Shown here: in pieces, positions 8,292-58,280 of the stretch
Layout: every line of letters begins with the position of its first letter
Position numbering within the stretch: position 1 is the stretch's first letter
Origin: Planctomycetota bacterium
GTDB lineage: Bacteria; Planctomycetota; UBA1135; UBA2386
Reading direction: 5' to 3'
NCBI GenBank assembly: GCA_016794035.1
Contig: JAEUHS010000016.1
Coordinates: 6,536 to 70,535 of the forward strand
Length of the DNA stretch: 64,000 bases
The notes under the pieces: generated by a model
The model's input: the letters and a program-made list of their open reading frames with translations, nothing else
The model's database searches: none
What the model was told of the DNA's origin: nothing
Program-made: the position numbers and the translations under genes

Positions 8292-9596
8292 CTATGGGCC
8301 GAACACCAGCACCTGCGCGGAACTCGACCCGAGGATACCGCTGCTCGACAGCAGCGCCACCTGGGCCGTCGCGGGCACGGGCACCACGAAGCCGGGGTTC
8401 CAGAACGTCACCGACAGCGTGCCGTCGGCGGCGAACGGCGCCGGCTGCAGCAGCGGCGTGTTCGCGAGCACGAGGCGCCAGTGCAGCGGCTGCTCGAACC
8501 CGGCCACCGCGAAGGTACCGTTGCCCGGTGTCGCATCGAGCGCGATGGCCAGCAGGCCCAGCCCGTTGGCCGGGCCGTCGACGACCTGCAGCGTGACGTT
8601 GCCGCTCGGGATCGGCGCCGGCCCGACCGGCGTCAGCTGCGCGCGCCGCGGCGTCACGAAGCGCAGGGTGCTGGTCGCGACGAAATCGGTCTCGAACACC
8701 ACGAGCGTGCCGCCGACCGGCTGGAACGGCTCGAACACGGGCGCGCTGCCACTGGCGAGGAACTGTACCGCCGCGGCGCCCGCTGCGGCGCCGTACGAGA
8801 GCAGCGGCGCCGACCGCCACGGCGCGGGTCCGTCGACGTCGTTCAGTTCGCCGAGCGTGTTCTGGAACCAGTCGGTGAACAGCAGGTCGCCGTCGTCGTC
8901 GAGACAGATGTCGGCTGCGGCGTCGAGTCCCGCGAACACGAGGTCCGCGTCCGCGAGGCCCAGCACGGTGCCCTGTTGCCGCGCCGCGTCGACGACCGGG
9001 CGGCGGAAGCGCAGCACCGAGGTCTGCCCCGGCGGAGTCGGAAACGCCAGGCTGGCGGTCGCGTAGTAGACGTCGCCGTTGTCCGCGACCGCGACCGGTC
9101 CCGACGCGCCCGGCAGCGATGCCAGCTGCTGCACGGCGCCGGTCTGCAGGTCCAGCACCACGAGGTCGTTGTCGGGTGTGCCGAAGCCGCCGGTCTTGGC
9201 CGACACCAGCACATGCTGCGGCCCAAGCCGGGCGGCGTCGTAGTTGTAGACGATGTTCGCCAACGGCTGCGCCGGCGGCGGTCCCTGCAGCGGCACGAGC
9301 CACAGCCGGTTGGTGGTGTTCTCCGCGAACAACAGGTTGCCGGCGCCGACGTCCAGCGTGAACGAGCCGAACACGACCGTCGGCAGGTGCAGCAGGGACA
9401 GCGGTGGCTGGCCGGGTGTCGCGTGCCAGAGGTCGGTGCCGTCGAAGTAGACGAGGTCGCCGGCGGGCAGCGCCAGCGGGCTCGCCGCGGCGGCCGGCAG
9501 CGGCGTCTGTCGACTGTCGAGGCCCTCGGGAACCCGTTGGGCAGCGAGCGCGGGCCAGGTCAGGGCAGCGAGAAGCAGGTGGTTCAGCTCGTTCAT
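8292..9596 (-). CDS. secreted NHL/SMP-30-like beta-propeller protein with C-terminal beta-sandwich module (riboswitch-controlled paralog B)
   Basis: This is the real 3' part of ORF 8292..12188. ATG 9596 opens a signal peptide (MNELNHLLLAALTWPALAAQ). Propeller-strand motifs GPVAVADNGDVYYAT and DICLDDDGDLLFTDW. It lies 5 bp downstream of paralog A. Confidence 0.72.
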   Translation of the reverse strand: MNELNHLLLAALTWPALAAQRVPEGLDSRQTPLPAAAASPLALPAGDLVYFDGTDLWHATPGQPPLSLLHLPTVVFGSFTLDVGAGNLLFAENTTNRLWLVPLQGPPPAQPLANIVYNYDAARLGPQHVLVSAKTGGFGTPDNDLVVLDLQTGAVQQLASLPGASGPVAVADNGDVYYATASLAFPTPPGQTSVLRFRRPVVDAARQQGTVLGLADADLVFAGLDAAADICLDDDGDLLFTDWFQNTLGELNDVDGPAPWRSAPLLSYGAAAGAAAVQFLASGSAPVFEPFQPVGGTLVVFETDFVATSTLRFVTPRRAQLTPVGPAPIPSGNVTLQVVDGPANGLGLLAIALDATPGNGTFAVAGFEQPLHWRLVLANTPLLQPAPFAADGTLSVTFWNPGFVVPVPATAQVALLSSSGILGSSSAQVLVFGP

Positions 9597-9601
9597 GGGG
9601 A

Positions 9602-10975
9602 TCAGGGCAACAGGTCGAGGCGGATCACGGCGGCGCTGCCGACGTCGCCGGCGCCGAGGGCGTCCATCGCGACGACCTGCAGGTCGACGCGGCCCGGCGC
9701 GGAACCGGGATTCCACAGGGCGAAGTTCGCCGCACCGGCGGCGTCGAGCGCCGTGTCGGCGACCAGGAACGTGGTCGCCAGCGGCAGCGCCAGCCACAGC
9801 GGCGTGCCGTTCACGGTCGCGACGAGGGTCTCCGGGCCGCTGCCGGGCAGGCTCGCGAACGCGAACCCGAGGCCCAGCGGAGGCGCGCCGGTGACGTCGA
9901 CGGAGAACGGGCCGACGGGGACGCGGGTGCCGGTCGGCACGGTTGCGTGCGGGCGTGCCGACCGCAGTTGCCGCCACTCGTAGCGGGTGGCGAAGTCGCT
10001 GGTGCCGACGCCGAGCGCCGGGGCCGCGTCGGCGGGTTGGAAGCCGCGGAACGGCGCGCTGCCGTGCGGCTGGTAGTGCAGCGTCAGGGCGAATCGTCCC
10101 GGGCCGACGTCGAGGGTGGTGCCGACCGGCGACAGCCCGCCCGGCGCCGTGTGCACGACGACGCTGCTCGTCGGATCGGTGGCATGCAACCGCCCCTGGT
10201 CGTCGACGGCCAGATCGAACAGGCCGGTGTAGCCGGTGCCGATCGCGGTGACGTCGGCCATGGACAGGGTCGCGCCGGCGAGCGCCGCCGACACGCGGTT
10301 GGCGGGAATCTGCAGCAGGCGGATGGCGCCCGGGGGCGGCGGCACCGTCGGTCCCAGTTCGCCGACGACGAGATCGCCGTTCGCTCGTACGGCCAGCGGT
10401 GCCGACGGGCCGACGAGCGCCAGCACTTCCCGCGGGAGTCGACCCGGGCCGACCAGCCAGACTCCGCTGTGGGCGCCGGCCTGTGGCCACATGGGGTTGG
10501 CCGTCACCAGCAGGTCGGCGCCGAGCGCCGCCGCGTCGAAGGCGTTCGGTACGCCGGCGAACGTGCCGACGTGGCCGGCGACCGGATCGACCAGCAGCAC
10601 CTTGCCGCTGCGCAAGGCGCCGACCGCACACCGCCCGCCCGCGACGGGCACCAGGAAGGCGATGTCGTCGTTGCTGCCGAGGTCGAGCAACGGCCGCATC
10701 GTGGCCACCCGTTGCGCACCGGTCCGGAACAGCTGCTGCCGCACGGCCACGAGGTGCTCCTTCGCGTTCAGCACCAGGGCGCTGCGCACGAGCAGCGGTT
10801 GCGCCGTCTCGACGAACGATGTCGCGCAGCTCCAGCCGGGCGGCACGGTCGCCGCCTGCGCCGCCAGCGTCGCGCCGAAGCCGACGGCGGCCAGCGCGCG
10901 GCCGAGGCGCGCGAGCCGACGCGGTGCCACGGCGGGGGCGCCGGCACGCAGGTTCGGCGACCTGATGGCTGTCAT
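9602..10975 (-). CDS. secreted NHL/SMP-30-like beta-propeller protein with C-terminal beta-sandwich module (riboswitch-controlled paralog A)
   Basis: ORF 9602..11098 trimmed to ATG 10975, with SD GAGGTGG just upstream. Signal peptide MTAIRSPNLRAGAPAVAPRRLARLGRALAAVGFGATLAAQA. Motifs LFDLAVDDQGRLHATD and ANGDLVVGELG. The C-terminus parallels paralog B (FALWNPG vs TFWNPG). Confidence 0.72.
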   Translation of the reverse strand: MTAIRSPNLRAGAPAVAPRRLARLGRALAAVGFGATLAAQAATVPPGWSCATSFVETAQPLLVRSALVLNAKEHLVAVRQQLFRTGAQRVATMRPLLDLGSNDDIAFLVPVAGGRCAVGALRSGKVLLVDPVAGHVGTFAGVPNAFDAAALGADLLVTANPMWPQAGAHSGVWLVGPGRLPREVLALVGPSAPLAVRANGDLVVGELGPTVPPPPGAIRLLQIPANRVSAALAGATLSMADVTAIGTGYTGLFDLAVDDQGRLHATDPTSSVVVHTAPGGLSPVGTTLDVGPGRFALTLHYQPHGSAPFRGFQPADAAPALGVGTSDFATRYEWRQLRSARPHATVPTGTRVPVGPFSVDVTGAPPLGLGFAFASLPGSGPETLVATVNGTPLWLALPLATTFLVADTALDAAGAANFALWNPGSAPGRVDLQVVAMDALGAGDVGSAAVIRLDLLP

Positions 10976-11034
10976 GATCCACCTCGGCGTCTTGCGCGCC
11001 GCGAATGGGAACCGGAAGCGACGGCCATGTGGCC

Positions 11035-11185
11035 GTTCCTCGCGGATGTTCTGGCTCCCGGATCGGCCTACTGACCCGCCTTCCCAGGTCGCCGACACGG
11101 CGATCCCAGTGGCACTTGGGCGTTCGTTCCCGGTGACAGCTGCGGGACAGCGCCGGAATCACACCGGCTTCCCCGCGAGGAACCG
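11035..11185 (-). promoter_or_regulatory. cobalamin (B12) riboswitch aptamer, 5' leader of the 10975 gene
   Basis: Minus-strand read: cGGTTCCTCGCGGGGAAGCCGGTGTGATTCCGGCGCTGTCCCGCAGCTGTCACCGGGAACGAACGCCCAAGTGCCACTGGGATCGCCGTGTCGGCGACCTGGGAAGGCGGGTCAGTAGGCCGATCCGGGAGCCAGAACATCCGCGAGGAACgg. It carries the conserved core GGGAA.CCGGTG.GA.TCCGG..C.G.CCCGC..CTGT, plus GCCACTG, GGGAAGGC and a B12-box-like GAGCCAGAAC. A perfect 10-bp P1 helix (GTTCCTCGCG/CGCGAGGAAC) closes it. The aptamer ends 59 nt before the ATG. Not verified with a covariance model. Confidence 0.8.
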
Positions 11186-11186
11186 C

Positions 11187-11214
11187 AGGGTATCCGGACC
11201 GGCTCCATGCACAA
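11187..11214 (-). promoter_or_regulatory. candidate sigma-70-type promoter of the riboswitch transcript
   Basis: -35 TTGTGC (11214-11209), a 16-nt spacer, and -10 TACCCT (11192-11187). The predicted TSS falls at the 5' edge of P1. This is a pattern match only. Confidence 0.25.
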
Positions 11215-11321
11215 GGGAAAGTGCGCCGCCGGCCGGCGCGGGACTTGCCTGATGGCCGCCGCGGCACGAGAAACCACGGTTGCCGCCGACCCTCGTCCCT
11301 GCGGTCGTGTCCAACCAGCCC

Positions 11322-43673: not shown

Positions 43674-44762
43674 TCATCGGCCCGTGTCGGTGGCGGCCGG
43701 CGCCGTGCCGACCTCGACGTCGAACACGCTCTCGCCGTCACCGGCCGGCCACGCGACCAGTCGATGGCCGTCGAGCGCGAGCTGCCAGACGCCGCCCTCG
43801 GCGGCGCGCGCGAACAGCCGCCACGACGCGAGCTGACGGTTCTGGCCTTCCTCGACGATCGTCTCGGCGGCCGGCGCCGCCGGCGGCCGCGGCGGCGGCG
43901 CTGCGACCGGGCGCTGCAGCCGCTCGCGCAGGTCGATGCGCGCCGACTGCGGCACGCGCAGGGCCCGCACCGCGCGGCGGTGGGGGCCGTCGCGATGCAG
44001 CGCGCCGATGTCGAGCAGCAGCGCCTCGGCCGTGCCGATGCCGGTCAGTACGCCGGTCGCCAGGTCGAGCTCGACGCAGCCGTCTTCGCTGACGCCGATG
44101 CCGAGCCGCTGCCCGGTCGCTTCCAGCGCGGCGACCAGGCGGCCGGTGCGATGGCGTTCGAAGAAGTGCGAGTCGGTCATCACCCACGGCTCGAACAGCA
44201 TGCCGGGGCCGACGCGCGGGCCGCCGTCGCCGAGCGCGTCGCCGCTGCTGCCGCCGAGCAGCATGCGTTCGCCCATCATCGCGCAGCCGGCGCTCGAGCC
44301 GGCGATCACGCCGCCGCGTTGCAGCAGCCGCCGCATCGCCAGCCACTCCGGCGTGTCTCTGCCGCCGGGCCGGTACCGATCGGTGATGCGCTGCTGATCG
44401 CCGCCGGTGAAGAACAGGCCGGTCGCCCGGTCGATCGCGGCGACGGTCGCCTCGGTCGTGGTCTCGCGCCGCACGACTTCGCACGGCAGGCCGGGCCACC
44501 AGGTCTGCAGCGCCGCGACCTTGCCGGTCGCCATGTCGTCCTGGTCGCCGCTGGCAGCGGTGACGACGACGATGCGCGGCGGTCGGTCGCGGCCCGCCAG
44601 CGCCAGGAAGCGGTCGAACACCGGCTGCTGGTCGTCGTCGAGTCCGCCGCCGATCAACAGCAGCGCACCCTCGGCCGCGCGCGGGAAGCGCGGCCGCGCG
44701 GTCCGGCAGCTCGCGGCCAGCACGGCGGCCAGCAGCAGCACGACCAGGCGCACGCGGCTCAT
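43674..44762 (-). CDS. cyanophycinase-like serine peptidase (S51), lipoprotein, with ~80-aa C-terminal extension
   Basis: This is the real 3' part of ORF 43674..45764. ATG 44762 overlaps the upstream TGA (ATGA). Lipobox LAASC. Motifs LLLIGGGLDDD, FTGGDQQRI, IAGSSAGCAMMG (nucleophile Ser) and TDSHFFERHRTGRL. Confidence 0.85.
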   Translation of the reverse strand: MSRVRLVVLLLAAVLAASCRTARPRFPRAAEGALLLIGGGLDDDQQPVFDRFLALAGRDRPPRIVVVTAASGDQDDMATGKVAALQTWWPGLPCEVVRRETTTEATVAAIDRATGLFFTGGDQQRITDRYRPGGRDTPEWLAMRRLLQRGGVIAGSSAGCAMMGERMLLGGSSGDALGDGGPRVGPGMLFEPWVMTDSHFFERHRTGRLVAALEATGQRLGIGVSEDGCVELDLATGVLTGIGTAEALLLDIGALHRDGPHRRAVRALRVPQSARIDLRERLQRPVAAPPPRPPAAPAAETIVEEGQNRQLASWRLFARAAEGGVWQLALDGHRLVAWPAGDGESVFDVEVGTAPAATDTGR

Positions 44763-45757
44763 CGCTCGAAGATCGCGACCTCGAAGCGGCCGCGGCTGTC
44801 GGCCAGCGCGCGATACATGCCGTCGGAGTTGTAGACGGCGAACGCGTTGCCGCCGGCGTCGACCGCGACCACGCCGCCGTCGTCCCGGGCCAGCGTGTGC
44901 ATCACCACCGCGGTCGCGGCGGTGGCGAGGCTCTCCCCGGCGAACTCCATGCGCGCCGCGATCGTACGCGCGACGGTGTGGCGGAGGAACTGCTCGCCGG
45001 TGCCGGTGCCGCTGACCGCGGCGTAGCCGTTGGCGTAGGTGCCTGCGCCGACGATCGGCGAGTCGCCGACGCGGCCGAACTGCTTGCCGGTCAGACCGCC
45101 GGTGCTGGTCGCCGCCGCGAGCCGACCCTGCCGATCGAGCGCGACGCAGCCGACGGTGCCGGAGTCGGCGCCGGGGACCTTGCGTTCGCGTTCTTGCAGC
45201 ACCTCGTCGAGCATGCGCCGCCGCGCCGGGGTCGTGAACCACTCGTTGGGCACGCGTTCGACCCCCATCGCGGTCGCGAACTGCTCGGCGCCGTCGCCCA
45301 TCAGCAGCACGTGCCGCGTGCGCTGCATCACGAGGCGCGCCAACGACACCGGGTTCTTGACGGTCTTCACGCCGGCGACGGCGCCGCACGCCATCGTGCT
45401 GCCGTCCATGATCGCGGCGTCGAGTTCGTGGCCGCCGTTCTCGTTGCACGCCGCGCCCTTGCCGGCGTTGAACAGCGGGTCCGCCTCGAACTGGCGCACG
45501 ACCGCCTCGCAGACGTCGAGCGCGGCGTCGCCGCGCGCCAGGCGGTCGCGGCCGACGGTCAGCGCGCGCTCCATCGCGTCGCGATAGGCCTGCAGGTCGG
45601 CGGCCGGCGCGTCGCGCTCGAGCGTGCCAGCACCGCCGTGGATCGCGATCGCCCACGCGCCCGGCGGCGCCAGCGGCGGTGGGTGGGAGCCGCCGGTGGA
45701 CACACAGCCGCCGGCGAACGGCAGCCAGAGGACGACGAGGCAGATCGGCGCGCGCAT
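44759..45757 (-). CDS. iaaA: isoaspartyl peptidase / L-asparaginase (Ntn hydrolase), lipoprotein
   Basis: This is the real 3' end of ORF 44759..50605, starting at ATG 45757. Lipobox PFAGGC. Motifs IAIHGGAG, NAGKGA, GTVGCVALD (autoprocessing Thr), TSTGG and VSGTGTGE. Confidence 0.88.
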   Translation of the reverse strand: MRAPICLVVLWLPFAGGCVSTGGSHPPPLAPPGAWAIAIHGGAGTLERDAPAADLQAYRDAMERALTVGRDRLARGDAALDVCEAVVRQFEADPLFNAGKGAACNENGGHELDAAIMDGSTMACGAVAGVKTVKNPVSLARLVMQRTRHVLLMGDGAEQFATAMGVERVPNEWFTTPARRRMLDEVLQERERKVPGADSGTVGCVALDRQGRLAAATSTGGLTGKQFGRVGDSPIVGAGTYANGYAAVSGTGTGEQFLRHTVARTIAARMEFAGESLATAATAVVMHTLARDDGGVVAVDAGGNAFAVYNSDGMYRALADSRGRFEVAIFER

Positions 45758-45801
45758 GGCGCATGGTGTAGCGGCGCGGCGGGTGCGATGCGATCCCGAG
45801 G

Positions 45802-48800
45802 TCACGTCGGGCGCGGGTCGACCTGCAGCAGGTCGTTGACGGCCGCCAGCAGGGCGCCGATCGCGAACGGCTTCTCCAGCAGGCGCAGCGGGCCGTCGGC
45901 GCCGGTGCCGAGGTCGCCGGCCTCGCCGAAGAAGCCCGACACGAACAGCACCGGCAGCCCCGGCCGCTCCGCGGTCAACGCCGCCGCCAGTTCGCGGCCG
46001 CCCAGGCCCGGCATCACGACGTCGGTGATCAGCAGGTCGATCGTGCCGCGATGCCGGCGCGCGACGGCGAGCGCGCTCTGGCCATCGCTGGCGAGCAGCA
46101 CGGTGTGGCCGGCGCGCTGCAGCGCGCGCTGCACGAGGCCGCGCACCGGCGCCTCGTCCTCGACCAGCAGGATCGTCGCGGCCGCCGTCGGCGTCGGTGC
46201 CGCCGGCGCGACGGGCTCCGCCCCGGCGGCGCCCGTCGTCGACGGCAGCCGGATCCAGGCGGTCGTGCCCACGCCCGGTTCGCTCTCGAGCCACGCGTCG
46301 CCGCCGCTCTGCCGGGCGATGCCGTACACGGTCGACAGGCCGAGCCCGGTGCCCTTGCCCGGTCCCTTGGTGGTGAAGAACGGGTCGAACGCGTGCGAGC
46401 GCACGGTCTCGTCCATGCCGGTGCCGGTGTCCCGCACCCACAGCAGCGCGTGCGGCGCCGAGTTCTCGGTGCCGGGGACGTTGGCGACGCCGATCGTCAG
46501 CGTGCCGCCGGCCGGCATCGCGTCGCGCGCATTGACGACCAGGTTCAGCAGCACCTGTTCCATCTGGCTGCGATCGACGCGCACCGGCACCGGCCCGCCG
46601 GGCCGTTCCTGGCGCAGCTCGATGCTGGCGCCGATCAGGCGCTGCAGCAGCTCGGCCAGTTCGTCGACGATGGCGGCGAGGTCCATGACGTGGGGCGCCA
46701 GCAGCTGCTGGCGGCTGAAGGCCAGCAGCTGGCGCGTCAGCCCAGCGGCCCGCGACGCTGCATCGAGGATGCCGCGGGTGTCGGCGCGTCGCGCGTCGTC
46801 GGACGGCAGCGACTCGTCCAGCGCTTCCGCGTAGCCGACCACCGCGGTCAGCAGGTTGTTGAAGTCGTGCGCGACGCCGCCGGCGAGCTTGCCGACGGCC
46901 TCCATCTTCTGCGCCTGCCGCAGCTGCTCCTCGAGCGACTTGCGCGCGGTGATGTCGGCGACCACGCCGACGTAGGCACCGCCGCCGTCGAGGCCGCGCA
47001 CCAGCGTGCTCGACACCAGCGCCCAGAACCGCGACCCGTCCCGGCGGTGCAGCTGCATCTCGTCGGCCTCGTGCTGTCCCCGGTCGGTGCACAGCGAGGC
47101 GAGGTCGGCCAGATGTGCGGCCGGCAGGTCTGCGTCCGTCGCGACGAGGCGCAGCATCTCCTCCGGCGAGTCGTAGCCGAACAGCTCGGCGAAGCGTTGA
47201 TTGGCATAGGTCAGGCCGTGACCGTGCACGCAGCGGAACAGGCCCTCGGCGACGTGGCGCTGGATCGACACCAGCAGCGACTCCCGTTGTTCGCGTTCGA
47301 TGACGACGCCCGTGAGCACCGCGGCCCGTTCGACCAGTTCGATCTGCGCGGCGGTCGGCTGCCGGGGTTCGCGGTGGTAGATCGCGAAGGTGCCGACGGG
47401 TCGGCCGGCCGGCGAACGGATCGGCACCGACCAGCACGCGCGCAGACCATGGCTGGCGGCCGCTTCCCGCGCGATGTCCCAGGCCGGGTCGCGGGCGATG
47501 TCCGCGGTGATCACCGTGCGATTGTCGTGGGCCGCCGTGCCGCAGGTCCCGACCGCGGGACCGATCTCGATGCCCTCGATCGCCGCGCTGTAGCCCGACG
47601 GCAGCGAGGGAGCGCAGGCGAGGTGCAGCCGGCGGCCCTGCAGCAGCAGGATCGAGCCCATGCCGCGGCCCATCTGGCCCTCGATGCCCCGCACGATCTC
47701 GGTGAACACGTCCTGCACCGGCCGCGCCGTGGCGACGAGTTCGAGGATGCGGGCCTGCCAGGCCAGCAGCCGCTCGATCGCGGCGCGCTCGCTGACGTCG
47801 CGCACGATGCCCAGCACCTCGTCGTCGGCGAGACGGATGAAACGCGCCTCGCGCACCCGGTGGTGATGCGGCGGACTCAGCGGATACTCGATCGCACCGG
47901 AGCGACCATGGGTGCAGGCGTCGTCGATGGCGCGCAGCATGCGGTCGGCGACGTCGGCCGGCACCAGCGCCTCGAGCGGCTGGTCGATCAGGCGCTCGCG
48001 CGGCGTCGGCAGCGGCACGCCTTCGGGCACCAGCGCGTCGAGCACGGTGCCGTCGCGGCGCATGCGGTAGACGACGTCCGGCAGCACGTTCAACAACGCC
48101 GCGCGCAGTCCCTCGCTGCGGAACCAGCCCTGTGCGTTCGCCTGCCGCTCGGCGAACAGGCTGCCGAACACCAGCGGCACCGCCAGCAGCATCAGTTCGA
48201 AGATCTGGATCGCGGTGTGGCGCTCGCGCAGCGACGCCAGCTGGAACGGGCCGATGGCGTGGCTCGACGCGACGGTGACCGTGACGGCCGCGAGGAACGA
48301 CGCGGTCGTGGTGCCGCGCAGGCCGAAGCGCCACGCGACCGCCAGCAGCAGCGGCACCAGCCCATAGAGCATCACGATCGAGGTCGCGTTGGCGGACAGC
48401 TGCGTCAGCACGCCCCACGCCATGCCCGATATCACCGCCATCAGCAGCGCACCCTCGAGCAGCGGTCGCGGCCGCAGGCGCGGGCGCCCGCCGGCGGACC
48501 AGGTCAGCACCAGTGGCACGACCGCCAGCACCCCGAGCGCGTTCATGCGCCACCAGCCGTAGTAGCCCGACGCGCGCGGGCCGACGCCCACCACCGTGCA
48601 GAAGATCGTCGACGTCACGACGCTGGCGAGCGGCGCGACCGCCGCCGTGAGCAGCAGCGCCAGCACGTCGCGCAGCCGGGCGAACGCCGCCTGGCAGCCA
48701 CACGCGCGCAGCACCAGCACGCCGACCACCGCCTCGGCGGCGCTGCCGAGCCCGGCGGTCACCGCCGCCGCGGGCAGATAGTCGTTCCACAGCCGCTGCG

Positions 48801-48990
48801 CGACGACCGCGGCGAAGACGACGGCCGCCGCCGGCAGGCCCAACAGCCAGGTGCCCGCGACCGCGACGCCGCTCGGCAGCCAGACGATGGCGTGGGTGAC
48901 GGCCGGTCCGTCGAGGGCGTGCAGCAGTCCTGCCGCGACGAACGCGAGCAGGAACGCCACGTAGCGCAGGGTTCGTGTCGCCGCGGGCAT
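45802..48990 (-). CDS. hybrid sensor histidine kinase/response regulator (MASE1-like membrane domain, PAS, GAF, PAS, HisKA, HATPase_c, REC)
   Basis: About 8 N-terminal TM helices ([17 protein letters not shown]). H-box [11 protein letters not shown]. ATPase motifs [16 protein letters not shown] and GTGLGLS. Receiver motifs [17 protein letters not shown] and LEKPF. Confidence 0.9.
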
Positions 48991-49028
48991 CGCCGCCCGA
49001 GGGTAGCGAGCGCCGCCGGGCGACGCAT

Positions 49029-49047
49029 GGGGGGGGGCGCCCCCGGG
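49029..49047. repeat. G/C-only element GGGGGGGGGCGCCCCCGGG (G9 run plus the 12-nt palindrome GGGGGCGCCCCC)
   Basis: Read directly. It lies between the Kelch-1 stop (49048) and the HK start (48990). Confidence 0.9.
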
Positions 49048-50397
49048 TCAGAGTCCGAGCGTGGTCACGACCGCGTTCGAGACGGTGGCGCCGGCCGGGT
49101 TGACGCCCGGATCGAGACACAGCGCCTGCGCGTAGATGCGATCGCCGACGGTGCCGATGGTCGGGTTGTAGGTGAACGACGCCATGCCACCGGCGCTGGT
49201 GACGTTGACGAACGCGTCGGGGAAGGCGTAGCCGGCGCAGCCCGGCAGGCCGACGAAGTCGAGCGCGAGGCCCGGCAACGCGGACAGGCCCAGCACGAAT
49301 GCCACGGCCTGCGGCGCGGTGTTCAGGTCGGTGAGCACCAGCCGGTAGTCGCCGCCGATGCGACCGGCGTCGGGCATGCTCAGCGCCGGCACGCCGTTCG
49401 AACCGGGGCAGCCGACACCGTAGGCACGCCAGCGGGCGCCGAACTCCCAGGTCTGGTTGGAGAGCGTGTTCGGACTCTGCGTGAAGCCGCCGAACTTCAC
49501 CACCTGTCGCCGCGTCGGCAGGAATGCGAGCGAATGGTCGCGCGCCGGCTGCGTCGCCGTCGGCTGCTGCGTCCACGCGGTGCCGTCGAACTCCCACGTG
49601 TCGGCGAAGATCGTGGTCGCATCCTGACCGCCGGTCAGCACGCAGACGCCGCGCAGGTCGTCGTAGACCATCTTCGCGGCGTTGCGCGGCGACGGCCTGG
49701 CGCCGGCGATCGGCACCGGGGTCCAGTTGACGCCGTCGTAGGTCCAGGTCGCGTCGAACAGCGTGCTGCTGAACGCGCCGCCGAACAGCACCGTCTTGCC
49801 GAGCGCCGCGTGGTAGCACATCGCCGGCCGGTCCAGCGCGCCGGGGTTCGCCGCGGTCGTGATCTGCACCCAGTTGACGCCGTCGTACTCCCAGGTCTTG
49901 TTCGACGGGATGCCGACGCCGGCGCCGACGCCGCCGTAGACGACGACGCGCGCGCGGCCGATGTCGTAGCAGATGCCGTTGCGGAACAGACCGCCGGGGT
50001 TCGTGGCGGGCGTTCGCAGGCTCCAGTCGACGCCGTCGAACTCCCAGGTCTCGCTGCTGGCGCCGCCGGCGGAGCCGCCGTAGAGCACGACCACGCCGCG
50101 CAGCAGGTCGTAGGTCATCTCGACCTCGATGCGGCCGCTCGGCGACGTCGCCGGGGCGAGCTGCGTCCAGTCGACGCCGTCGTAGACCCAGGTCTCGTTG
50201 CTCGGCGCCGGGTTGCCGGTGCCGCCGAACAGCAGCGCGCCGCCGACGCCGGGCGCGAACGTCATCGCCGCGCCGCGCCGCGCCGTCGGCGAGGTCGCGG
50301 GGGACTGTTGTTCCCATTGCGTGCGCGCCAGCAGCGGGGCCGCCGGGGCGGCGACCGAGACGGAGAGCAGGAACAGGGTGGTTGCGGTTCGAGGCAT
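49048..50397 (-). CDS. secreted Kelch-repeat beta-propeller protein with unassigned Cys-containing C-terminal module (paralog 1)
   Basis: ORF 49048..50508 trimmed to ATG 50397, with signal peptide MPRTATTLFLLSVSVAAPAAPLLA. Six blades with the recurring pattern hhhFGG...(E/D)TWE(F/Y)DG..W. The C-terminal 124 aa contain GCPGSNGVPAL, GLPGCAGYAF and QALCLDPGVNPAG. Confidence 0.85.
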   Translation of the reverse strand: MPRTATTLFLLSVSVAAPAAPLLARTQWEQQSPATSPTARRGAAMTFAPGVGGALLFGGTGNPAPSNETWVYDGVDWTQLAPATSPSGRIEVEMTYDLLRGVVVLYGGSAGGASSETWEFDGVDWSLRTPATNPGGLFRNGICYDIGRARVVVYGGVGAGVGIPSNKTWEYDGVNWVQITTAANPGALDRPAMCYHAALGKTVLFGGAFSSTLFDATWTYDGVNWTPVPIAGARPSPRNAAKMVYDDLRGVCVLTGGQDATTIFADTWEFDGTAWTQQPTATQPARDHSLAFLPTRRQVVKFGGFTQSPNTLSNQTWEFGARWRAYGVGCPGSNGVPALSMPDAGRIGGDYRLVLTDLNTAPQAVAFVLGLSALPGLALDFVGLPGCAGYAFPDAFVNVTSAGGMASFTYNPTIGTVGDRIYAQALCLDPGVNPAGATVSNAVVTTLGL

Positions 50398-50636
50398 CGG
50401 CGTCGGGTCGGCTGTGGGCACGATGCCACAGGCGACATTGGCGCGCGATCGGCCGGCGGAATCCGCGGAAACGGGCCGGCCCGTCGCCGTTGCGTTTCGT
50501 GGTTGCACTCCGTCCGTGAGGACCCGGATCCCGAGGCATGGAACGTCGTTGCGACCCAGCCTCTCGCCGCTGAGCTGCGGCGCGCAGCGCCGTCAGCTCC
50601 AGCATGGGCGGGCGTAGCCGCCACCCCGCACGTTCC

Positions 50637-52028
50637 CTAGTAGCCGAGCACGATCGTCGCCGCGTTCGACACGGTCAGCCCGGCGCTGTTGACGGTCGGA
50701 TCGACGCCGATGCCCTGCAGGTAGTAGGCGTCGCCGAGCTGGCTCGGGATCTGCGGCAGATCGTAGGTCCAGGACGCGGTGCCATTGACGACCGGCAGCG
50801 TCACCAGCGCGTCGGCGCTGGTGTAGGCGCGACAGCCCGGCATGCCGAGGCTGGTCAGCAGCATCGGCAGGCTGCCGAGCGGCCATTGCGTGCGGCTGAG
50901 CCCGACCGCCATCGCGGCGAGCGTGCTGCCGGGCGGCAGGTTGACGATGTCGACGCGCAGCTGGGTGCCGAGCACGGGCAGCGCGCCGAGCACCAGCTGC
51001 GGCGTGCCGGCGGTGCCGGCGCAGCCCATGCCGAACGCCTGGAACTGGGCGCCGAACTGCTGGGTGTCGTCGCGCAGGCTGTTGTTGGCCGTCACACCGC
51101 CGAACGCGGTGATGCGGTCGTGCACGAAGTCGTGCGCCATCGCGAAGTCCGAGCGCGGCGGATACATGCCGCCGTAGAGCGGATCGAGCTGGCGCCAGGT
51201 CGTGCCGTCGAACTCCCAGCTGTCGTTCTGGATCACCTGCGTCACCGGATCGCGGCCGCCGGTCAGCATCACGACGTTGCGGCTGAGGATCGCCTCCATG
51301 CGCGCACCCACCCGGGCCGACGGCTTGGGCCCGGTGATCGCCACCAGTTGCCAGTCGAGGCCGTCGTAGGTCCAGGTCTCGTCGTGGGCGTTGCCGCTGT
51401 TGTCGGCGCCACCGAACATCACGGTCTTGCCGATCGCGGGCAGGTAGGCCATCGCCGCGTCGGTCAGGCCCGGCGGCGAGTTGATCGTGGTCACCACATG
51501 CCAGTCGCCGCCGTAGTACTCCCACGTCTCCGCGAGCGCGGACGTCGGCTGGTAGAGGTTGAAGCGTCCGCCATAGAGCACGGTGACCTGGCGGCCGAGG
51601 TCGTAGGCCATCATGTGCCGCGCGCGGCCGAGCGGTGTGCTGGTCGGCGCCTGCTGTTGCCACGCGGTCCCGTTCCAGGCCCAGGTGTCGTCGGCGGCGA
51701 ACGGCGACGGGCTGCCGCTGGCGTCGATGCCGCCGTAGAGCAGGATCTCGCCGGTGATGGAGTTGGCCGCCATCGCCGACCGCTGCCGCGGCGACGGCGA
51801 GACCGTCGGCTGCAGCTGCGTCCAGGTGCCGTTGGCGAAGCTCCACAGCTCGTTGCCGGCGTTGCCGCCGAACATCAGCATTCGGTCCTGCAGCACGTCG
51901 AAGGCCATCATCGCGCCCTGCCGGGCGGACGGGGTCGTCGGGGTCGTCACCGGGCCCCACTGCGCGGCGACGGCGGTGGTGGTCGCGAGAGCGGCCAGAG
52001 CCGCACGGAGGACGGAGTTCGAGTTCAT
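50637..52028 (-). CDS. secreted Kelch-repeat beta-propeller protein (paralog 2)
   Basis: ORF 50637..52073 trimmed to ATG 52028, with signal peptide MNSNSVLRAALAALATTTAVAAQ. Same blade pattern. The C-terminal 132 aa contain GCAGTAGTPQL, GMPGCRAYTS and GIGVDPTVNSAG. Confidence 0.85.
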   Translation of the reverse strand: MNSNSVLRAALAALATTTAVAAQWGPVTTPTTPSARQGAMMAFDVLQDRMLMFGGNAGNELWSFANGTWTQLQPTVSPSPRQRSAMAANSITGEILLYGGIDASGSPSPFAADDTWAWNGTAWQQQAPTSTPLGRARHMMAYDLGRQVTVLYGGRFNLYQPTSALAETWEYYGGDWHVVTTINSPPGLTDAAMAYLPAIGKTVMFGGADNSGNAHDETWTYDGLDWQLVAITGPKPSARVGARMEAILSRNVVMLTGGRDPVTQVIQNDSWEFDGTTWRQLDPLYGGMYPPRSDFAMAHDFVHDRITAFGGVTANNSLRDDTQQFGAQFQAFGMGCAGTAGTPQLVLGALPVLGTQLRVDIVNLPPGSTLAAMAVGLSRTQWPLGSLPMLLTSLGMPGCRAYTSADALVTLPVVNGTASWTYDLPQIPSQLGDAYYLQGIGVDPTVNSAGLTVSNAATIVLGY

Positions 52029-52058
52029 GGGTCTTCGAGTCTGCGGGGTGATACGAAA

Positions 52059-52090
52059 CGGAGAGTGAGCCACCGGGCGCTCACTCTCCG
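52059..52090 (-). terminator. perfect 12-bp hairpin followed by UUU, 47 nt after the Kelch-3 stop and 30 nt before the Kelch-2 ATG
   Basis: Minus strand reads CGGAGAGTGAGC-gcccggtg-GCTCACTCTCCG-ttt. It could be an intrinsic terminator or a processing/attenuation site. Confidence 0.4.
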
Positions 52091-52136
52091 CGTGGCCGCG
52101 CAGCGCGGCCGGGGGGTTCCGAGCGACCGACCGGCC

Positions 52137-53516
52137 TCAGAGGCCGATGGTGCCGGAGATCGCCTGCGTGATCGTGAAGTCGAACGCGTTGACGCCCGGG
52201 TCGTAGCACAGCGCCTGGCCCCAGAACTGGCTGCCGATGGTGCCGCCGACGGATGGCCAGGTCCAGCTGGCGTCGCCGAGGCTGCCGGTGATGCCGACCG
52301 AGGCGTCTGGCGTGATGTAGGCGTAGCAGCCCGGCATGCCGGGGAACGGATCGAGCAGGAAGCCGCCCGGGATCTGCGTGAAGCCGAACACCAGCACGCC
52401 CGCGTTGAACGTCGTGTTCAGGTTCGACGCGGTGACGACCCAGGGCTGGCCGAGGCGCGGCGACTGGTTGACCGACAGGTGCGGCAGGCCGTTGCTGCCG
52501 GGGCAGGCCGAGCCGAAGGTGCCGGTCTCCCATTCCCAGGTGTCGTTGTAGTAGGTGAAGGTCGCGAAACTGACGCCGCCAAACACCACCATGCGGTTGC
52601 TGGCGGGCATGAAGCCCATCATGCCATTGAGGCGCGTCCCGGTGATCGAAGTGGCGACCTGGGTCCAAGTCGTGCCATCGAACTCCCAGGTGTCGCTGAA
52701 GTAGGTCTGGCCGGTCATGTCGGTTGGGTCCGCACCACCGGTCAGCACGCAGACGCCACGGATGCTGTCATAGGCCATCATGGCCCCGGTGCGTGCTGCG
52801 GGCTTGGCACCGGCGATGGTCAGAGCGGACCAGGCGTGCGTCGCGCCATCGTAGGTCCAGGTGGTGTTGTTCCACGATCCCTGCACGTCGATGCCCCCGA
52901 ACAGCACGGTCTTGCCGATGCCGGCATGGAAGCACATCGAAGGGCGTTCGAGCGGGCCCGGGTTCGTGGCCGGCGTGATGGCGGTCTCGGTCCAGCCGGT
53001 GCCATTCCACTCGAAGGTCTTGTCCGAGTCGATCGGGAAGAAGCTGTCCGGCAGGCCGCCGTAGACGATCGTCAGGTTGTGGACCGAGTCGTGACTCATG
53101 CCGTGCAGGCCAAGGCCGCCCGGGGTCGTGCCGACGATGACCGGCTGAGTCCAGGTGGTGCCATCGAACACCCACGTCTCGTCCTTCGACGGGCCGCCGA
53201 AGAAGCTCGAACTCAGGCCACCGTACATCACGAACACGCCGCCGTTGATGTCGTACTCCATCTCGGCGCCGGCACGGCCGCCGGGGCCGCTGGCCGCGGT
53301 GGTCCAGGTCGTGCCATCGTAGGTCCACGCCTGGCTGCTGGGCGCGAAGCCACCGGTGTCGCCGCCGAACATCAGCAGGTTGCCGGTCGGGCCGGTGGCG
53401 AATGCTGCTGCGGCGGTGGTCGGAGGCGAAGCCCCCGGGGTTGCCTGCTGCCACTGGGCCGACAGGGAAGAAACGGAGATGGAGAGGGCGATGGCCCCGA
53501 GGAGCGTAGTTTTCAT
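52137..53516 (-). CDS. secreted Kelch-repeat beta-propeller protein (paralog 3)
   Basis: This is the real 3' part of ORF 52137..54446, starting at ATG 53516, with signal peptide MKTTLLGAIALSISVSSLSAQ. Same blade pattern. The C-terminal 126 aa contain ACPGSNGLPHL, GMPGCYAYIT and QALCYDPGVNAFD. Confidence 0.85.
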   Translation of the reverse strand: MKTTLLGAIALSISVSSLSAQWQQATPGASPPTTAAAAFATGPTGNLLMFGGDTGGFAPSSQAWTYDGTTWTTAASGPGGRAGAEMEYDINGGVFVMYGGLSSSFFGGPSKDETWVFDGTTWTQPVIVGTTPGGLGLHGMSHDSVHNLTIVYGGLPDSFFPIDSDKTFEWNGTGWTETAITPATNPGPLERPSMCFHAGIGKTVLFGGIDVQGSWNNTTWTYDGATHAWSALTIAGAKPAARTGAMMAYDSIRGVCVLTGGADPTDMTGQTYFSDTWEFDGTTWTQVATSITGTRLNGMMGFMPASNRMVVFGGVSFATFTYYNDTWEWETGTFGSACPGSNGLPHLSVNQSPRLGQPWVVTASNLNTTFNAGVLVFGFTQIPGGFLLDPFPGMPGCYAYITPDASVGITGSLGDASWTWPSVGGTIGSQFWGQALCYDPGVNAFDFTITQAISGTIGL

Positions 53517-53533
53517 GGCAGGAATGTCCTGCC
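53517..53533 (-). promoter_or_regulatory. hairpin abutting the Kelch-3 start codon that contains the only SD-like AGGA
   Basis: Minus strand reads GGCAGGA-cat-TCCTGCC-ATG (7-bp stem, or 6 bp with a 5-nt loop). Confidence 0.3.
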
Positions 53534-53593
53534 GGTTAGGAGCCGTGCACCGGCCGATCGGCCGGAAGAATCCGGCACGACGCCCCAGAAAAC

Positions 53594-56500
53594 TCAGTTC
53601 TTGAACCGCATCGCGCGGGACCCGATGCGCCAGACCAGGCCCAGCTGGTTGGACACGAACAGCTCGGGGCTGCCGTCGCCGTCGCTGTCGGGCACCGGCA
53701 GCAGGCAGCTGCCGAACCCCTGCACGGACGGGTGCGGCAGCAGCGACGAGGCGTCCAGTCCCTGCGCGGTCCAGAACTCGATCGCGCCCGTCGATGCCGT
53801 GCCGCCCAGCGGCGCGCCGATCGCCACCAGGGGCGGCCCCGTCGCACGCCGATAGGCGGCCACCGCGAAGCCGAACTCGATGCCGGGCTTGTGGCCGCGG
53901 ATCTCGCCCAGCCTGGCGCCGGTGCGGCCGGAGAACAGCTGCACCTGGTCGACGTTGCTCGTCGTGCCATCGCCGACCGCCGAGATCACCACGTCGCCGC
54001 GGCCGTCGCCGTCGACGTCGCCGATGCCGGCCACCGCCATGCCGAAGCCACGGTCGGGTGACGGGTCGCTCCAGGACTGCAGCACGGCGCCGGTGCCGGT
54101 GGAGTAGAGCCGCACCAGACCCGGCGCGCCGCCGACACGCCCCCCGTAGTTGCCGCCGACCAGCAGGTCGTCGCGTCCGTCGCCGTCGGCGTCGCCGGCG
54201 TTGGCGATGCAGGCGCCGAACCAGACACCGGGCACGTCGTTGCGCAGCGTGGACAGCACCCGGCGCGTGCGGCCGGAGAAGATGTCGACGCGGCCCTGCG
54301 GCGCGGTGTTGCGCACCAGCGCCGCGGTGGCGACCGCGAAGTCGGCGGCGCCATCCCCGTCGACGTCGCCGAGGCCGGCCACGGCGACGCCGAAACCCGG
54401 TTCGCCCTCGAGCTGGGCGAGGCGCTGCCGCGTGCGGCCCGACCACACCTCGGCGAGGCCGAACTCCGCGTCCCGCGTGCCGGCCGGTGCGCCGATCAGC
54501 CAGTCGCAGGCCCCGTCGCCGTCGACGTCGCCGATCCCGGCGAGGCTGTGGCCGAAGATCTGTCCGTCACCGTCGCCTTCGATCGAGTCGACGAGTTCCG
54601 CGGTGACGCCGTCGACCAGGAACACACGGCCCGGCGCCTCGTACGGGTCGCGGGTCGCGGCGCTGATCAGCACGTCGTCGATGCCGTCGCCGGTGCGGTC
54701 GTCGACGCGGCTCAACGCGTGACCGAACATCAGCGCGGGCGCCAGGTCGGCGGGCGGCATGGCGAGTCGCAGCGGGACTCCGGTCCAGGCGCCGCCGGGC
54801 AGCTGCAGCGAGACGTTCTCGACCATCAGCGTCAGCGTCGGTGCCAGGTAGGGCAGCAGCCAGGCGGCGCCCGCCGCGAGCAGGCGCAGCCGCAGGTCCT
54901 CGGCGCGGTGGAGCGGCAGGTGCGCGACCAGCAGCGGCACCGCGAGCAGCGCATTGCCGGCCGCCGTGTCGAGCAGGCGCTGTGCCCTGCCGGCGGCGCG
55001 CATCTGCAGTCGCACGTCGCGCACGAGGCGCAGCAGGAACACGAAGTTCGTCGCGATCGTGGGTGCGAAGCTGCGGATCGGCATCTCGCCGCCGAGGAAC
55101 GCCCTGCCGGTCGCGTCGGCCCCGGTGCGTGCCAGGCCCTCCCGGTAGAGTTCGCTCAGCCCGCCGATGCGCAGGATCTCGAGCAGGTCGGCGACCGTAC
55201 CGCGGGAACCTTGGCGACCCAGATCCTGGTCCAACACCGCCAGGACCTCGTGCGCGTAGCTGCCGAGGTCCCGCTGCTGCAGCGCGACACGCGCCCGATC
55301 GAGGCGGAACCGGGACACCTCGGGCCACCCGTGCACGAGGCTGTCGAGCACGCGAGCCGCGACCGCGAGGTCGCCGCGACGCTGCGCCAGCTGGGCGATC
55401 CGGTGCAGCGGGGTCGGGTCCGACGGGTCCCGCCGCGCCAGTTCGCGGTAGCGGTCGGCGAGGTCGCCGTCGACCTCGGTCGCGGCGCGCAGGTCGAGTT
55501 CCACCCGCTGCCGCAGCAGGGCGACGCTGTCGTCGTCGCCGACGCCGGCGAGCCAGCGGCGGGTCGCCTGCAGGTCGCCGATCGCCAGCGCGGCATCCGC
55601 CAGCGCGAGGCGGAGGATCGCGGCGTCCGGGAACGACCGCTGGGCGCGCTGCAGGTGCGCATAGGCGAGGTCCGGCAGCCCGTCGGCCAGCAGGCGCATG
55701 CCGAGCGTGGCGCTGATCAGCGGTTCGTCGCGTTCGAGCGGCGAGATCCGTTCCCAGGCGCGCTCGCACAACCGGAAGTCCCCGAGCAGGAAACCCAGCA
55801 GGCCGGCGGTGGCGCGGTCTTCGTCGTCCGCCAGCGCCTCTTCGCGCAGCATCGGATCCGGATCCCGGCTGCCGAGGGCGAGGCTGCGTGCCGCTTCGAC
55901 CGTGAAGTCGCCCAGGCCCGCACAGAGCCGGCGGAACTCGTCGCTGGCGAGGGCGGTGTGCAGCTTCTCCGGCGCACCGACGGACAAGCGCCGCAGCCAC
56001 AGCGACAGCTGCGCCACGTCGCGTTCGAGCCGGGCGGCACGGTTGTCCGGATCGAGCGCGACGGCCTGGTCGTACTCGCCGATGGCGGTGAGCAGCGGCG
56101 CCGTCGTCGGCCCGCCCGCCGGGGCGGCCGGGTCGGTGGTGCTGCCCTCGTCGATGCCGCGCTGGGTCAGGCGCCGGCTCTCGATCGAGAAGATCTGCTG
56201 CCGCGCCGCCTGCACGTGGGCGCGCGCCGTGTCCTTCGAGCGGCCGGACGCCTGCACCCGGTCGAGGATGGGCACCATCGCGGCGGCGACCAGCGCGGCG
56301 CCCAGGGAGCCTGCGAGCAGGTGGTTGCGGTGGCGGCGCAGGAACTTGCCGGCGCGGCGCAGGGCGCCGACCGGGCGGGCCTGGATCGGCTGCAGGTCGA
56401 GCAGGCGCTGCAGGTCGTCGGCGAGCTCGCCCGCGCTCGTGTAGCGCCGGTCGGGGTCGACCTCCATCGCGTGCTGCACGATCGTCTCGAGGTCGCGCGG

Positions 56501-57469
56501 GCAGCCCGGCGCGGCCCGCCGCAGCGGCACCAGCCGGCCCTCCTCGATGCGCCGCAGCTGGTCCGTGGTCGAGCGACCGGCGAACGGCGTCGACAGGGTC
56601 AGGCACTCGTACAGCGTGACGCCGAGGCCGTAGACGTCGCACGCCGGGCCGATCGTCGCGTCGCCGCGCAGTTGCTCCGGCGACGAGTAGACCGGTGTGC
56701 CGGCGAAGCTGCCGGTGCGCGAGATCTCGCGCGACGTCAGCCGCACGAGGCCGAAGTCGACCAGCACCGGCTGGCCGCTGCGCCGCAGCAGGATGTTGGC
56801 GGGCTTCACGTCGCGGTGGATCAGGCCGGCGGCGTGCACCGCGCCGAGCGCGCCGGCGATCTTCGACGCCAACCGGACGAAGAACTGCGTCAGGTTGCGG
56901 GCGCCGAGTTCGGCCAGGGGCAGTCCGAGCCGCTCGGCCACCTGCGCGAGCGTCGGGATCGTGCCCTTGGCGTCGCGATGCGCGCGCAGGTGGTCGAGCA
57001 ACTGCTGCAGGCTCGGTCCGTCGACGAACTCCATCTCGAACGCGAGCACCTCGCCCTCGTCGACGATGCGGTGGATCGCGACGATGTGGTCGTGTTCGAC
57101 CTTGGCCAGCGCGCGGGCCTCGGCGAGGAAACGCGGCCGGCTGCGCGGCGACAGGCCGATCGAGTGCGGCAGCACCTTCAGCGCCACCTCGCGATCGAGC
57201 GACGTCTGCCGCGCGAGGTAGACCGTGCCCATGCCGCCGCGGCCGATCTCGCGCACGATCTCGTAGCCCTGCAGCGACGGCTTCGGCGTGTGCTTGCGGC
57301 CGGCGACCCCGAACGCCAGTCCGAGCGCTTCGTCGAGGCGGTGCGCGACCGTCGGATGGCGCGCCGCGGACCCCGGCAGGTCGGGCTCTTCGCCGTCGAG
57401 CATCTGCGTCAGCAGGTCGTCGAGCAGATCGGCGAACTCCGGGTCCTCCTCGGCGGGCGCGGACGTCAC
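53594..57469 (-). CDS. Hanks-type Ser/Thr protein kinase, single TM, TPR-like helical region and FG-GAP/VCBS (integrin-alpha-like) repeats
   Basis: This is the real 3' part of ORF 53594..58042. GTG 57469 overlaps the sigma-factor TGA (GTGA). Kinase motifs GRGGMGTVYLA, VALKVL, HRDVKPANILL, DFGL and GTPVYSSPEQ. TM helix LLAGSLGAALVAAAMVPIL. Six to seven repeats of the type GDVDGDGxxDhhhG. Confidence 0.9.
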   Translation of the reverse strand: MTSAPAEEDPEFADLLDDLLTQMLDGEEPDLPGSAARHPTVAHRLDEALGLAFGVAGRKHTPKPSLQGYEIVREIGRGGMGTVYLARQTSLDREVALKVLPHSIGLSPRSRPRFLAEARALAKVEHDHIVAIHRIVDEGEVLAFEMEFVDGPSLQQLLDHLRAHRDAKGTIPTLAQVAERLGLPLAELGARNLTQFFVRLASKIAGALGAVHAAGLIHRDVKPANILLRRSGQPVLVDFGLVRLTSREISRTGSFAGTPVYSSPEQLRGDATIGPACDVYGLGVTLYECLTLSTPFAGRSTTDQLRRIEEGRLVPLRRAAPGCPRDLETIVQHAMEVDPDRRYTSAGELADDLQRLLDLQPIQARPVGALRRAGKFLRRHRNHLLAGSLGAALVAAAMVPILDRVQASGRSKDTARAHVQAARQQIFSIESRRLTQRGIDEGSTTDPAAPAGGPTTAPLLTAIGEYDQAVALDPDNRAARLERDVAQLSLWLRRLSVGAPEKLHTALASDEFRRLCAGLGDFTVEAARSLALGSRDPDPMLREEALADDEDRATAGLLGFLLGDFRLCERAWERISPLERDEPLISATLGMRLLADGLPDLAYAHLQRAQRSFPDAAILRLALADAALAIGDLQATRRWLAGVGDDDSVALLRQRVELDLRAATEVDGDLADRYRELARRDPSDPTPLHRIAQLAQRRGDLAVAARVLDSLVHGWPEVSRFRLDRARVALQQRDLGSYAHEVLAVLDQDLGRQGSRGTVADLLEILRIGGLSELYREGLARTGADATGRAFLGGEMPIRSFAPTIATNFVFLLRLVRDVRLQMRAAGRAQRLLDTAAGNALLAVPLLVAHLPLHRAEDLRLRLLAAGAAWLLPYLAPTLTLMVENVSLQLPGGAWTGVPLRLAMPPADLAPALMFGHALSRVDDRTGDGIDDVLISAATRDPYEAPGRVFLVDGVTAELVDSIEGDGDGQIFGHSLAGIGDVDGDGACDWLIGAPAGTRDAEFGLAEVWSGRTRQRLAQLEGEPGFGVAVAGLGDVDGDGAADFAVATAALVRNTAPQGRVDIFSGRTRRVLSTLRNDVPGVWFGACIANAGDADGDGRDDLLVGGNYGGRVGGAPGLVRLYSTGTGAVLQSWSDPSPDRGFGMAVAGIGDVDGDGRGDVVISAVGDGTTSNVDQVQLFSGRTGARLGEIRGHKPGIEFGFAVAAYRRATGPPLVAIGAPLGGTASTGAIEFWTAQGLDASSLLPHPSVQGFGSCLLPVPDSDGDGSPELFVSNQLGLVWRIGSRAMRFKN

Positions 57470-58092
57470 GCTGGATCTCGCGGTTCGTGGGCGTCGGCGC
57501 CGAGGCGCCGCTGCAGCTCGCGGCGGTAGTCGCGCATGCCGCGCACCAGCCGGTCCTTGAACGTCGACAGCGGCAGTCCGAGGCGTTCGGCCGAGTCCTT
57601 CAGCGGCACCTCCTCGAACACGCGCAGGCGCACGACGTCGCGCAGCGGCTCGTCGAGCGCGGCGAGCGCGTGCTCGAGCACCCGGGCGCGTTCGAGATGG
57701 GACGCGGTGCGGCTCGGCGTCGTCGACTGCGGCGGCAGGTAGCCGTCGACCGTGTCGGCGCCCCCGAGGTCCGAGAAGCGCGCCAGCGGCCGGCTGCCGC
57801 CGCGCTTGGTGCGCAGCACGCCGCGCACCGCGGCCCGCACCCGGTTGTGGGCGATGCCGAGCAGCCATGCACGGTACTTGCTCAGGCTGCTCCACTCGTG
57901 CTGCTGGCGATCGCGCCACGCCATCCACAGCGTCTCCTGCCAGATGTCCTCGACCGAGATCTCGAGCCGCACCTCGGCGCCGATCCAGCTGCCGATCACG
58001 ACGAAGATCGTCGCCGCGTCGAGGCTGTCGACGAGGCGACACCAGGTCGTCGGGTCGAGGTGGGGTGCCGGGGACTCGGGAGCGGGCCGCAT
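57466..58092 (-). CDS. ECF-type RNA polymerase sigma factor (sigma-70 regions 2 and 4)
   Basis: ORF 57466..58158 trimmed to ATG 58092. Region 2: VEDIWQETLWMAWRDRQQ. Region 4: LRDVVRLRVFEEVPLKDSAERLGLPLSTFKDRLVRGMRDYR. No anti-sigma gene follows; a kinase does. Confidence 0.85.
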   Translation of the reverse strand: MRPAPESPAPHLDPTTWCRLVDSLDAATIFVVIGSWIGAEVRLEISVEDIWQETLWMAWRDRQQHEWSSLSKYRAWLLGIAHNRVRAAVRGVLRTKRGGSRPLARFSDLGGADTVDGYLPPQSTTPSRTASHLERARVLEHALAALDEPLRDVVRLRVFEEVPLKDSAERLGLPLSTFKDRLVRGMRDYRRELQRRLGADAHEPRDPA

Positions 58093-58280
58093 GCGTGCAG
58101 CAGCAAGACTACTGCGGAACCCCGCCGCCGGGTCGTCCGGGCCGGAACCCGGCCGCACCGGTCCGGCACCGACGGCCGGGAAACGCCGGCGCGAACGGCG
58201 TCCCGGACGCCGGCCGAAACCGCGACCACCGACGCGGCGAGGTCCATCGGCGCACGGCGGATGGTATACGTGACGACTCC

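Follow-up and report, generated by a model that had tools for sequence, protein, structure and literature searches.

Three Kelch proteins encoded in the window, by which we mean the whole stretch of 64,000 nucleotides that was analysed (72.9% GC), end in a C-terminal module that belongs to a real and sizeable protein family. This family is missing from Pfam-A (2025 copy) and from NCBIfam r20, in agreement with the first-pass annotation of the sequence, which had not recognised the module as a named domain. Our literature searches likewise found no description of it. As far as the evidence goes, the module joins the large and varied group of Ig-like accessory domains found at protein C-termini. 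Among the functional explanations, we tentatively favour that of a common surface-docking domain with a shared partner in the envelope.

The Kelch genes and their C-terminal modules

The genes K3 (52137..53516, 459 aa), K2 (50637..52028, 463 aa) and K1 (49048..50397, 449 aa) are arranged head to tail on the reverse strand, and each of them encodes a signal peptide, a Kelch propeller and the module. The coding sequence of K1 has a GC3 of 0.93, and an exact-sequence look-up with K1 matched no record. The propellers are matched by PF24681 with E-values from 3.6e-21 to 4.9e-33, and Kelch_3 and Kelch_4 also lie above the Pfam gathering score. These Kelch matches stop at about residue 332, short of the module. 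Very long ORFs of 1083-1948 aa run across the real genes in a different frame or on the opposite strand (44759-50605 on the reverse strand, 46051-50640 and 50604-53855 on the forward strand); they are spurious, as is typical of DNA of 73% GC.

All on the reverse strand, the module covers 49051..49443 in K1 (131 aa, FGARW...TTLGL), 50640..51056 in K2 (139 aa) and 52140..52532 in K3 (131 aa). Its boundaries, which exclude the stop codons, were set by the HMM and the AF2 model. Alignment and HMM confirm that the three Kelch paralogues share a C-terminal module at the places proposed in the first-pass annotation. The location was right, and the domain is about 7 aa longer on the N-terminal side than had been given, because its first beta-strand precedes the G-x-G-C motif. 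The motifs quoted at that stage are all present, with the correction that the alternatives directly before the first Cys are G/A and not C/A. The first motif reads FG-x-G/A-C-x-G-S/T-x-G-x-P-x-L, and further motifs are G-L/M-P-G-C-x-x-Y, D-A-x-V, G-x-A-S-W/F-T and Q-A-L-C-x-D-P-G-V-N.

The K2 and K3 modules are 40% and 42% identical to the K1 module, respectively, with 33 invariant columns over 131-139 residues. When the six-frame translation of the window was searched with an HMM built from the three sequences, only the modules of K1-K3 were matched (E 1e-62 to 1e-66). Since propellers (38-49%) and modules (35-42%) have diverged to a similar degree, K1-K3 are whole-gene duplicates.

The K1 module has Cys residues at protein positions 330 and 387, and a subfamily-specific third one at position 427. 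The third Cys is lost in K2, as had been noticed earlier, and the sequence there is GIGVDPTVN. The sole two Cys of the entire K2 protein (336 and 399) both lie inside the module. Because these two Cys are invariant in the family, and are the only ones in K2, the sequences suggest a single intradomain disulfide, which probably joins the N-terminal G-x-G-C loop to the G-M-P-G-C loop.

An AF2 model based on an alignment of 88 sequences is all-beta with 11 strands (pLDDT 96.2, pTM 0.87), and the discrete beta-sandwich that had been proposed from the sequence is borne out by it. The model made from only the three window copies was poor (pLDDT 47.5) and was set aside. The module is neither a PEP-CTERM nor an LPXTG signal, as had also been stated: it carries neither motif, no transmembrane segment and no Arg tail. 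Sec-type signal peptides were found in K1-K3 and in PA and PB, two further proteins of the window that had been linked to the module; they end near AAQ (A-A-Q/W in K1-K3), and the earlier view that all five proteins are exported holds.

We found no credible sequence match to the module in the PDB. A PDB profile search returned consensus-TPR designer proteins (E 1.6e-7), which we rejected as a repeated short-motif coincidence because no single stretch passes the threshold, the score being summed over 8 repeats of a 24-residue motif (Y-x-Q-A-L-x-L-D-P-x-N-A...N-A), and because AF2 confidently gives beta structure there. Residues ~102-124 of the module (K1: 49072-49140), with the pattern F-Y-x-Q-A-L-x-L-D-P-x-x-N-A...S-N-A, mimic a consensus TPR repeat (YYQKALELDPNNAEA...), and this motif is a trap for automated annotation.

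Family size, terminal position and cargo

A word-indexed homology search that used the K1 module as its only query gave no match. The exhaustive profile search, which covered 1.84 billion cluster representatives, detected 4921 proteins at E<=1e-3, of which 1431 reach E<=1e-10 and 8 reach E<=1e-30. Matches with a named source are almost all annotated as 'hypothetical protein' from Planctomycetes/Planctomycetota. Furthermore, a scan of one genome per GTDB species yielded 80 loci, nearly all of them in Planctomycetota MAGs; this search used the 3-sequence alignment, so that the loci are biased towards Kelch-type members. Some of the genomes with loci are labelled as planctomycete genera by automated pipelines. 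All 80 loci lie on contigs of 61-74% GC, including one Bacteroidota-labelled contig of 63% GC, which is probably mis-binned. Tandem arrays are common, and several MAGs hold 4-10 module genes, with a maximum of at least 10, where the copies per MAG are lower bounds due to the two narrow peptide patterns used in the search.

The module is found at the very end of the proteins. At most 3 residues follow it in 137 of the 139 well-covered matches and in 109 of the 118 ORFs from the 80 loci, and in two members about 115 residues trail it. Only one matched stretch was found in 146 of the 150 best-scoring proteins. In the alignment of 299 non-identical copies both Cys are kept in every sequence, which extends to the whole family the invariance first noticed in the Kelch paralogues, and Q114 is kept in 298 of them. 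Other conserved positions are many Gly and Pro residues, D119, N123 and S130-N131 of an S-N-A triplet, and the module tail reads ...SNAxxxxIG followed by 1-3 residues. Together, Q114, D119, N123 and S130-N131 make up a polar cluster.

To describe the cargo we used Pfam scans of 99 homologues, 52 long ORFs from the loci and ten selected proteins. Beta-propellers are represented by Kelch, RCC1, FG-GAP, Rax2/DUF5122 and sortilin/BNR families, of which Kelch is the largest cargo class, in part owing to the Kelch origin of the query. Other non-catalytic cargo includes beta-helix, PKD, DUF642 and C-type lectin domains, and the enzymes found are reprolysin, trypsin-like peptidase, sulfatase and a beta-lactamase with BTRD1 repeats. 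None of the Pfam families frequently matched in the 99 and 52 homologues covers the module. When hydrophobicity was used as a crude criterion, an N-terminal signal sequence was scored in 63 of the 76 full-length members.

Besides these combinations there are members that consist of a signal peptide and the module alone (P0024 and P0074). Two other short members were seen, namely P0199, which is without a clear signal peptide, and P0165, which could be an end that became detached from a G8/beta-helix gene. The metagenomic protein P0089 (367 aa) combines a prepilin-type N-methylation motif (Pfam: PF07963) and DUF2950 with the C-terminal module; therefore the module can sit on a pilin or pseudopilin scaffold.

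Galactose oxidase has a C-terminal E-set domain that caps or supports its propeller, and this domain (Pfam: PF09118) resembles the module in being a beta-sandwich directly after a Kelch propeller. By this analogy the role of the module could be confined to structure or oligomerisation, as a cap or support for beta-propellers and without any part in targeting. Beta-propellers do make up most of its partners, the last Kelch strand (TWEF/TWEW) of K1-K3 runs almost directly into the module, and a related C-terminal domain may follow repeats or a propeller in PA and PB as well. However, unlike the galactose oxidase E-set, the module is carried by sulfatases, peptidases, beta-helices and a pilin too, and it exists on its own; the PF09118 HMM has no match in K1-K3 at E<=1. 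We consider such an exclusively structural role very unlikely for the family. For K1-K3 themselves, a structural role beside the propeller is possible because of the near absence of a linker.

The Kelch array lies between signalling genes, all of them on the reverse strand and annotated by Pfam. Upstream of the array, an ECF-type sigma factor is encoded at 57466-58158 and, from 53594 to ~57490, a Ser/Thr kinase that has TPR repeats and an FG-GAP propeller at its C-terminus. Downstream are a hybrid histidine kinase with the architecture MASE1-PAS-GAF-PAS-HisKA-HATPase-REC (45802-48990) and an Asparaginase_2 gene (44759-45790). The same order of sigma factor, Ser/Thr kinase, two to three Kelch-module genes, histidine kinase and Asparaginase_2 recurs in five of the loci (L005, L006, L008, L012 and L015). 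The conserved cluster with kinases and a sigma factor suggests that the Kelch-module proteins belong to a signalling regulon. Across all 80 loci the neighbourhoods contain only tandem paralogues and, for the Kelch arrays, these signalling genes. The two largest clusters of apparent neighbours turned out to be shadow ORFs, which this high-GC DNA produces antisense to the module genes, and were rejected as genes.

PA and PB and their possible relation to the module

PA (8292-9596) and PB (9602-10975) are encoded on the reverse strand in a PB-PA operon. A cobalamin riboswitch lies upstream of it at 11033..11221 on the same strand (Rfam: RF00174, 82.3 bits, E 9.6e-19), and the riboswitch control assigned to both proteins in the first-pass annotation agrees with this match. 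The operon is followed by a gene for a 979-aa membrane-anchored protein of CarboxypepD_reg repeats (5201-8140, reverse strand). Over their full length the two proteins are paralogues with 29% identity, and Pfam matches neither of them at gathering level. PA is 100% identical to a 'Planctomycetes bacterium' MAG protein with the locus tag JNM25_02530. The PA family has 120 matches at E<=0.001, and every one with a named source is 'hypothetical'; these named sources are mostly Planctomycetota MAGs. PA and PB could be B12-scavenging surface proteins.

The C-terminal domain of PA, which was delimited with the PA-family HMM and hhalign, covers 8298..8699 (reverse strand, ~134 aa) and has no Cys. Its paralogue in PB covers 9611..10003 (reverse strand, ~131 aa). 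The two C-termini match each other in BLASTP with an E-value of 5e-5, and the C-terminal HMM of the PA family matches PB at 1e-24.

Testing whether PA and PB share the module of the Kelch proteins, for which significant profile similarity had been named as the deciding criterion, gave a mixed outcome. Module HMMs built from 3 or 62 sequences and run with --max had no match in PA or PB, hhalign of the module profile against the single PA or PB sequence gave probabilities of 0.1-0.3%, and both Cys motifs are missing from the two proteins. When the 62-sequence module profile was aligned with the profile of 119 PA-family C-termini, in contrast, hhalign reported a probability of 63% with P=7e-5 and a score of 32.4 over 95 columns. 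The profile-profile probabilities ranged from 58 to 63% and the alignments were in register, with the invariant Q of the module aligned with a conserved Q of the PA family.

This score of 32.4 compares with a mean of 11.8 (sd 2.2, maximum 19.3) in 150 column shuffles and with a maximum of 23.0 in 150 shuffles of six-column blocks, and none of the 300 shuffles exceeded 23. The reversed alignment scored 13.8. When a frame of 150 columns was moved along the whole PA alignment, the score was 8-12 in the N-terminal part, a putative propeller, and 31 was reached only at the C-terminus.

Another divergent C-terminal domain, that of L045 (11825-12391, reverse strand), has kept both Cys. It is matched by the module HMM with E 0.002 among 6690 ORFs and by the PA C-terminal HMM with E 1.6e-4 among 7410, in the same register, and may be an evolutionary intermediate. 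Judged from these sequence profiles, the module and the PA/PB domains probably form one superfamily with a Cys-stapled and a Cys-less branch.

Possible functions of the module

Comparing the AF2 model with the PDB using Foldseek gave generic Ig-like folds and no close neighbour; the best TM was 0.52 and the best E 0.013, which is non-significant. The listed neighbours have probabilities of up to 1.0, TMq values of 0.34-0.52, rmsd values of 5.8-8 Å and identities of 8-16%. They include the N-terminal CBM39 of beta-GRP, which binds glucan, a porphyran-binding CBM and the O-antigen-binding domain of WzmWzt, as well as macroglobulin MG domains, the FnIII domain of RbmA and Ig-like domains of the HPI S-layer. 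Like the module, these Ig-like, E-set and CBM-type domains are all-beta sandwiches, and they are its best structural neighbours, but they lack its GxGC, GMPGC, Q-x4-DPxxN and SNA motifs, and their matches are non-significant (E >= 0.013).

The carbohydrate-binding sandwiches among these weak neighbours count against surface docking and speak for another reading, in which the module is a CBM-like or lectin-like domain that would bind a polysaccharide or glycoconjugate outside the cell and take propellers and enzymes to this substrate. Its fusion to sulfatases, peptidases, a lectin, DUF642 and a pilin fits such substrate targeting, and so do the stand-alone secreted copies and the conserved polar Q/D/N/S-N cluster together with aromatic residues. 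Known CBMs are found at either end of a protein, internally and in tandem, whereas the module is single-copy and almost always at the extreme C-terminus. Moreover, no glycoside hydrolase is among the most frequent cargo families, and the fold matches do not exceed a TM of 0.52. Substrate targeting of this kind seems to us unlikely.

The known domain most similar in its distribution is the C-terminal domain (CTD) of proteins secreted by the type IX system of Bacteroidota, T9SS (Por_Secre_tail, TIGR04183/PF18962). Both are beta-sandwiches at the extreme C-terminus of diverse Sec-exported cargo, both are restricted to one phylum and both have many paralogues per genome. The T9SS CTD is reported to be a C-terminal beta-sandwich export signal (PMC4804311). 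By this likeness the module could be a dedicated secretion or sorting signal, a folded domain that a lineage-specific outer-membrane translocon or sortase would recognise and possibly remove. The terminal position, the single copy, the diverse cargo and the many paralogues in one lineage agree with this.

The differences are several. The T9SS CTD has about 70-100 aa and 7 strands, while the module is larger, with about 131 aa, 11 strands and an invariant predicted disulfide, and its host is a member of the Planctomycetota, a phylum in which, to our knowledge, the T9SS is not known. The T9SS CTD models had no Pfam or NCBIfam match to the module at E<=1, where no other family of the two databases matched it either, and no solved T9SS CTD structure is among the top 50 Foldseek PDB matches listed. 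Members that consist of the module alone, the fusion to a pilin and the rare C-terminal extensions also speak against a dedicated secretion signal and are unlike the T9SS CTD. They suggest that the module itself binds something and is not a disposable export tag. In the 80 loci and the window no gene for PorK/L/M/N, SprA, PorU or PorV adjoins a module gene, and the neighbourhoods of the 80 loci contain no secretion or sorting genes beside the module genes. A T9SS-like secretion signal seems to us unlikely.

The strict terminal position, the single copy, the unrelated extracytoplasmic cargo and the lineage restriction with many paralogues are the reasons why we read the module as a shared targeting or docking domain. 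According to this docking model, the module would be an Ig-like beta-sandwich of about 130 residues that folds by itself and has no catalytic activity, and a lineage of high-GC Planctomycetota would place it last on many Sec-exported proteins. Once exported and oxidised in the periplasm, the module would bind a single partner common to all these proteins, which could be a component of the envelope or surface or a part of an export or assembly apparatus, and functionally unrelated cargo would thereby be delivered to the cell surface or held there. In the window, this cargo would be the three paralogous Kelch propellers of the conserved signalling cluster, and PA and PB would carry the distantly related version of the module that lacks the Cys residues. 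That the 80 neighbourhoods reveal neither a partner nor a translocon nor a sorting enzyme counts against docking, and the almost missing linker in K1-K3 does so too.

A more far-reaching proposal, which we put forward by analogy and regard as improbable, is that the module and its Cys-less relatives of the PA/PB type mark a sorting or surface-display pathway that is undescribed so far and specific to this Planctomycetota lineage. Dedicated envelope machinery would then recognise the folded C-terminal beta-sandwich, which would be a functional analogue of the T9SS CTD. Such a pathway, if true, would define the surface proteome of the lineage, including the proteins under control of the B12 riboswitch.

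Should the module prove to be just one more Ig-like domain with an accessory or binding role, only annotation would gain. Thousands of predicted proteins of uncultured high-GC Planctomycetota end in it, and a name for it, backed by the HMM, the boundaries, the confident model and the invariant residues, would improve their annotation at once and would single out a group of exported proteins specific to the lineage. A strictly terminal placement on unrelated cargo has earlier led to the discovery of dedicated sorting systems, namely the T9SS CTD and PEP-CTERM/exosortase. The module family is a concrete handle on how these bacteria populate their cell surface.
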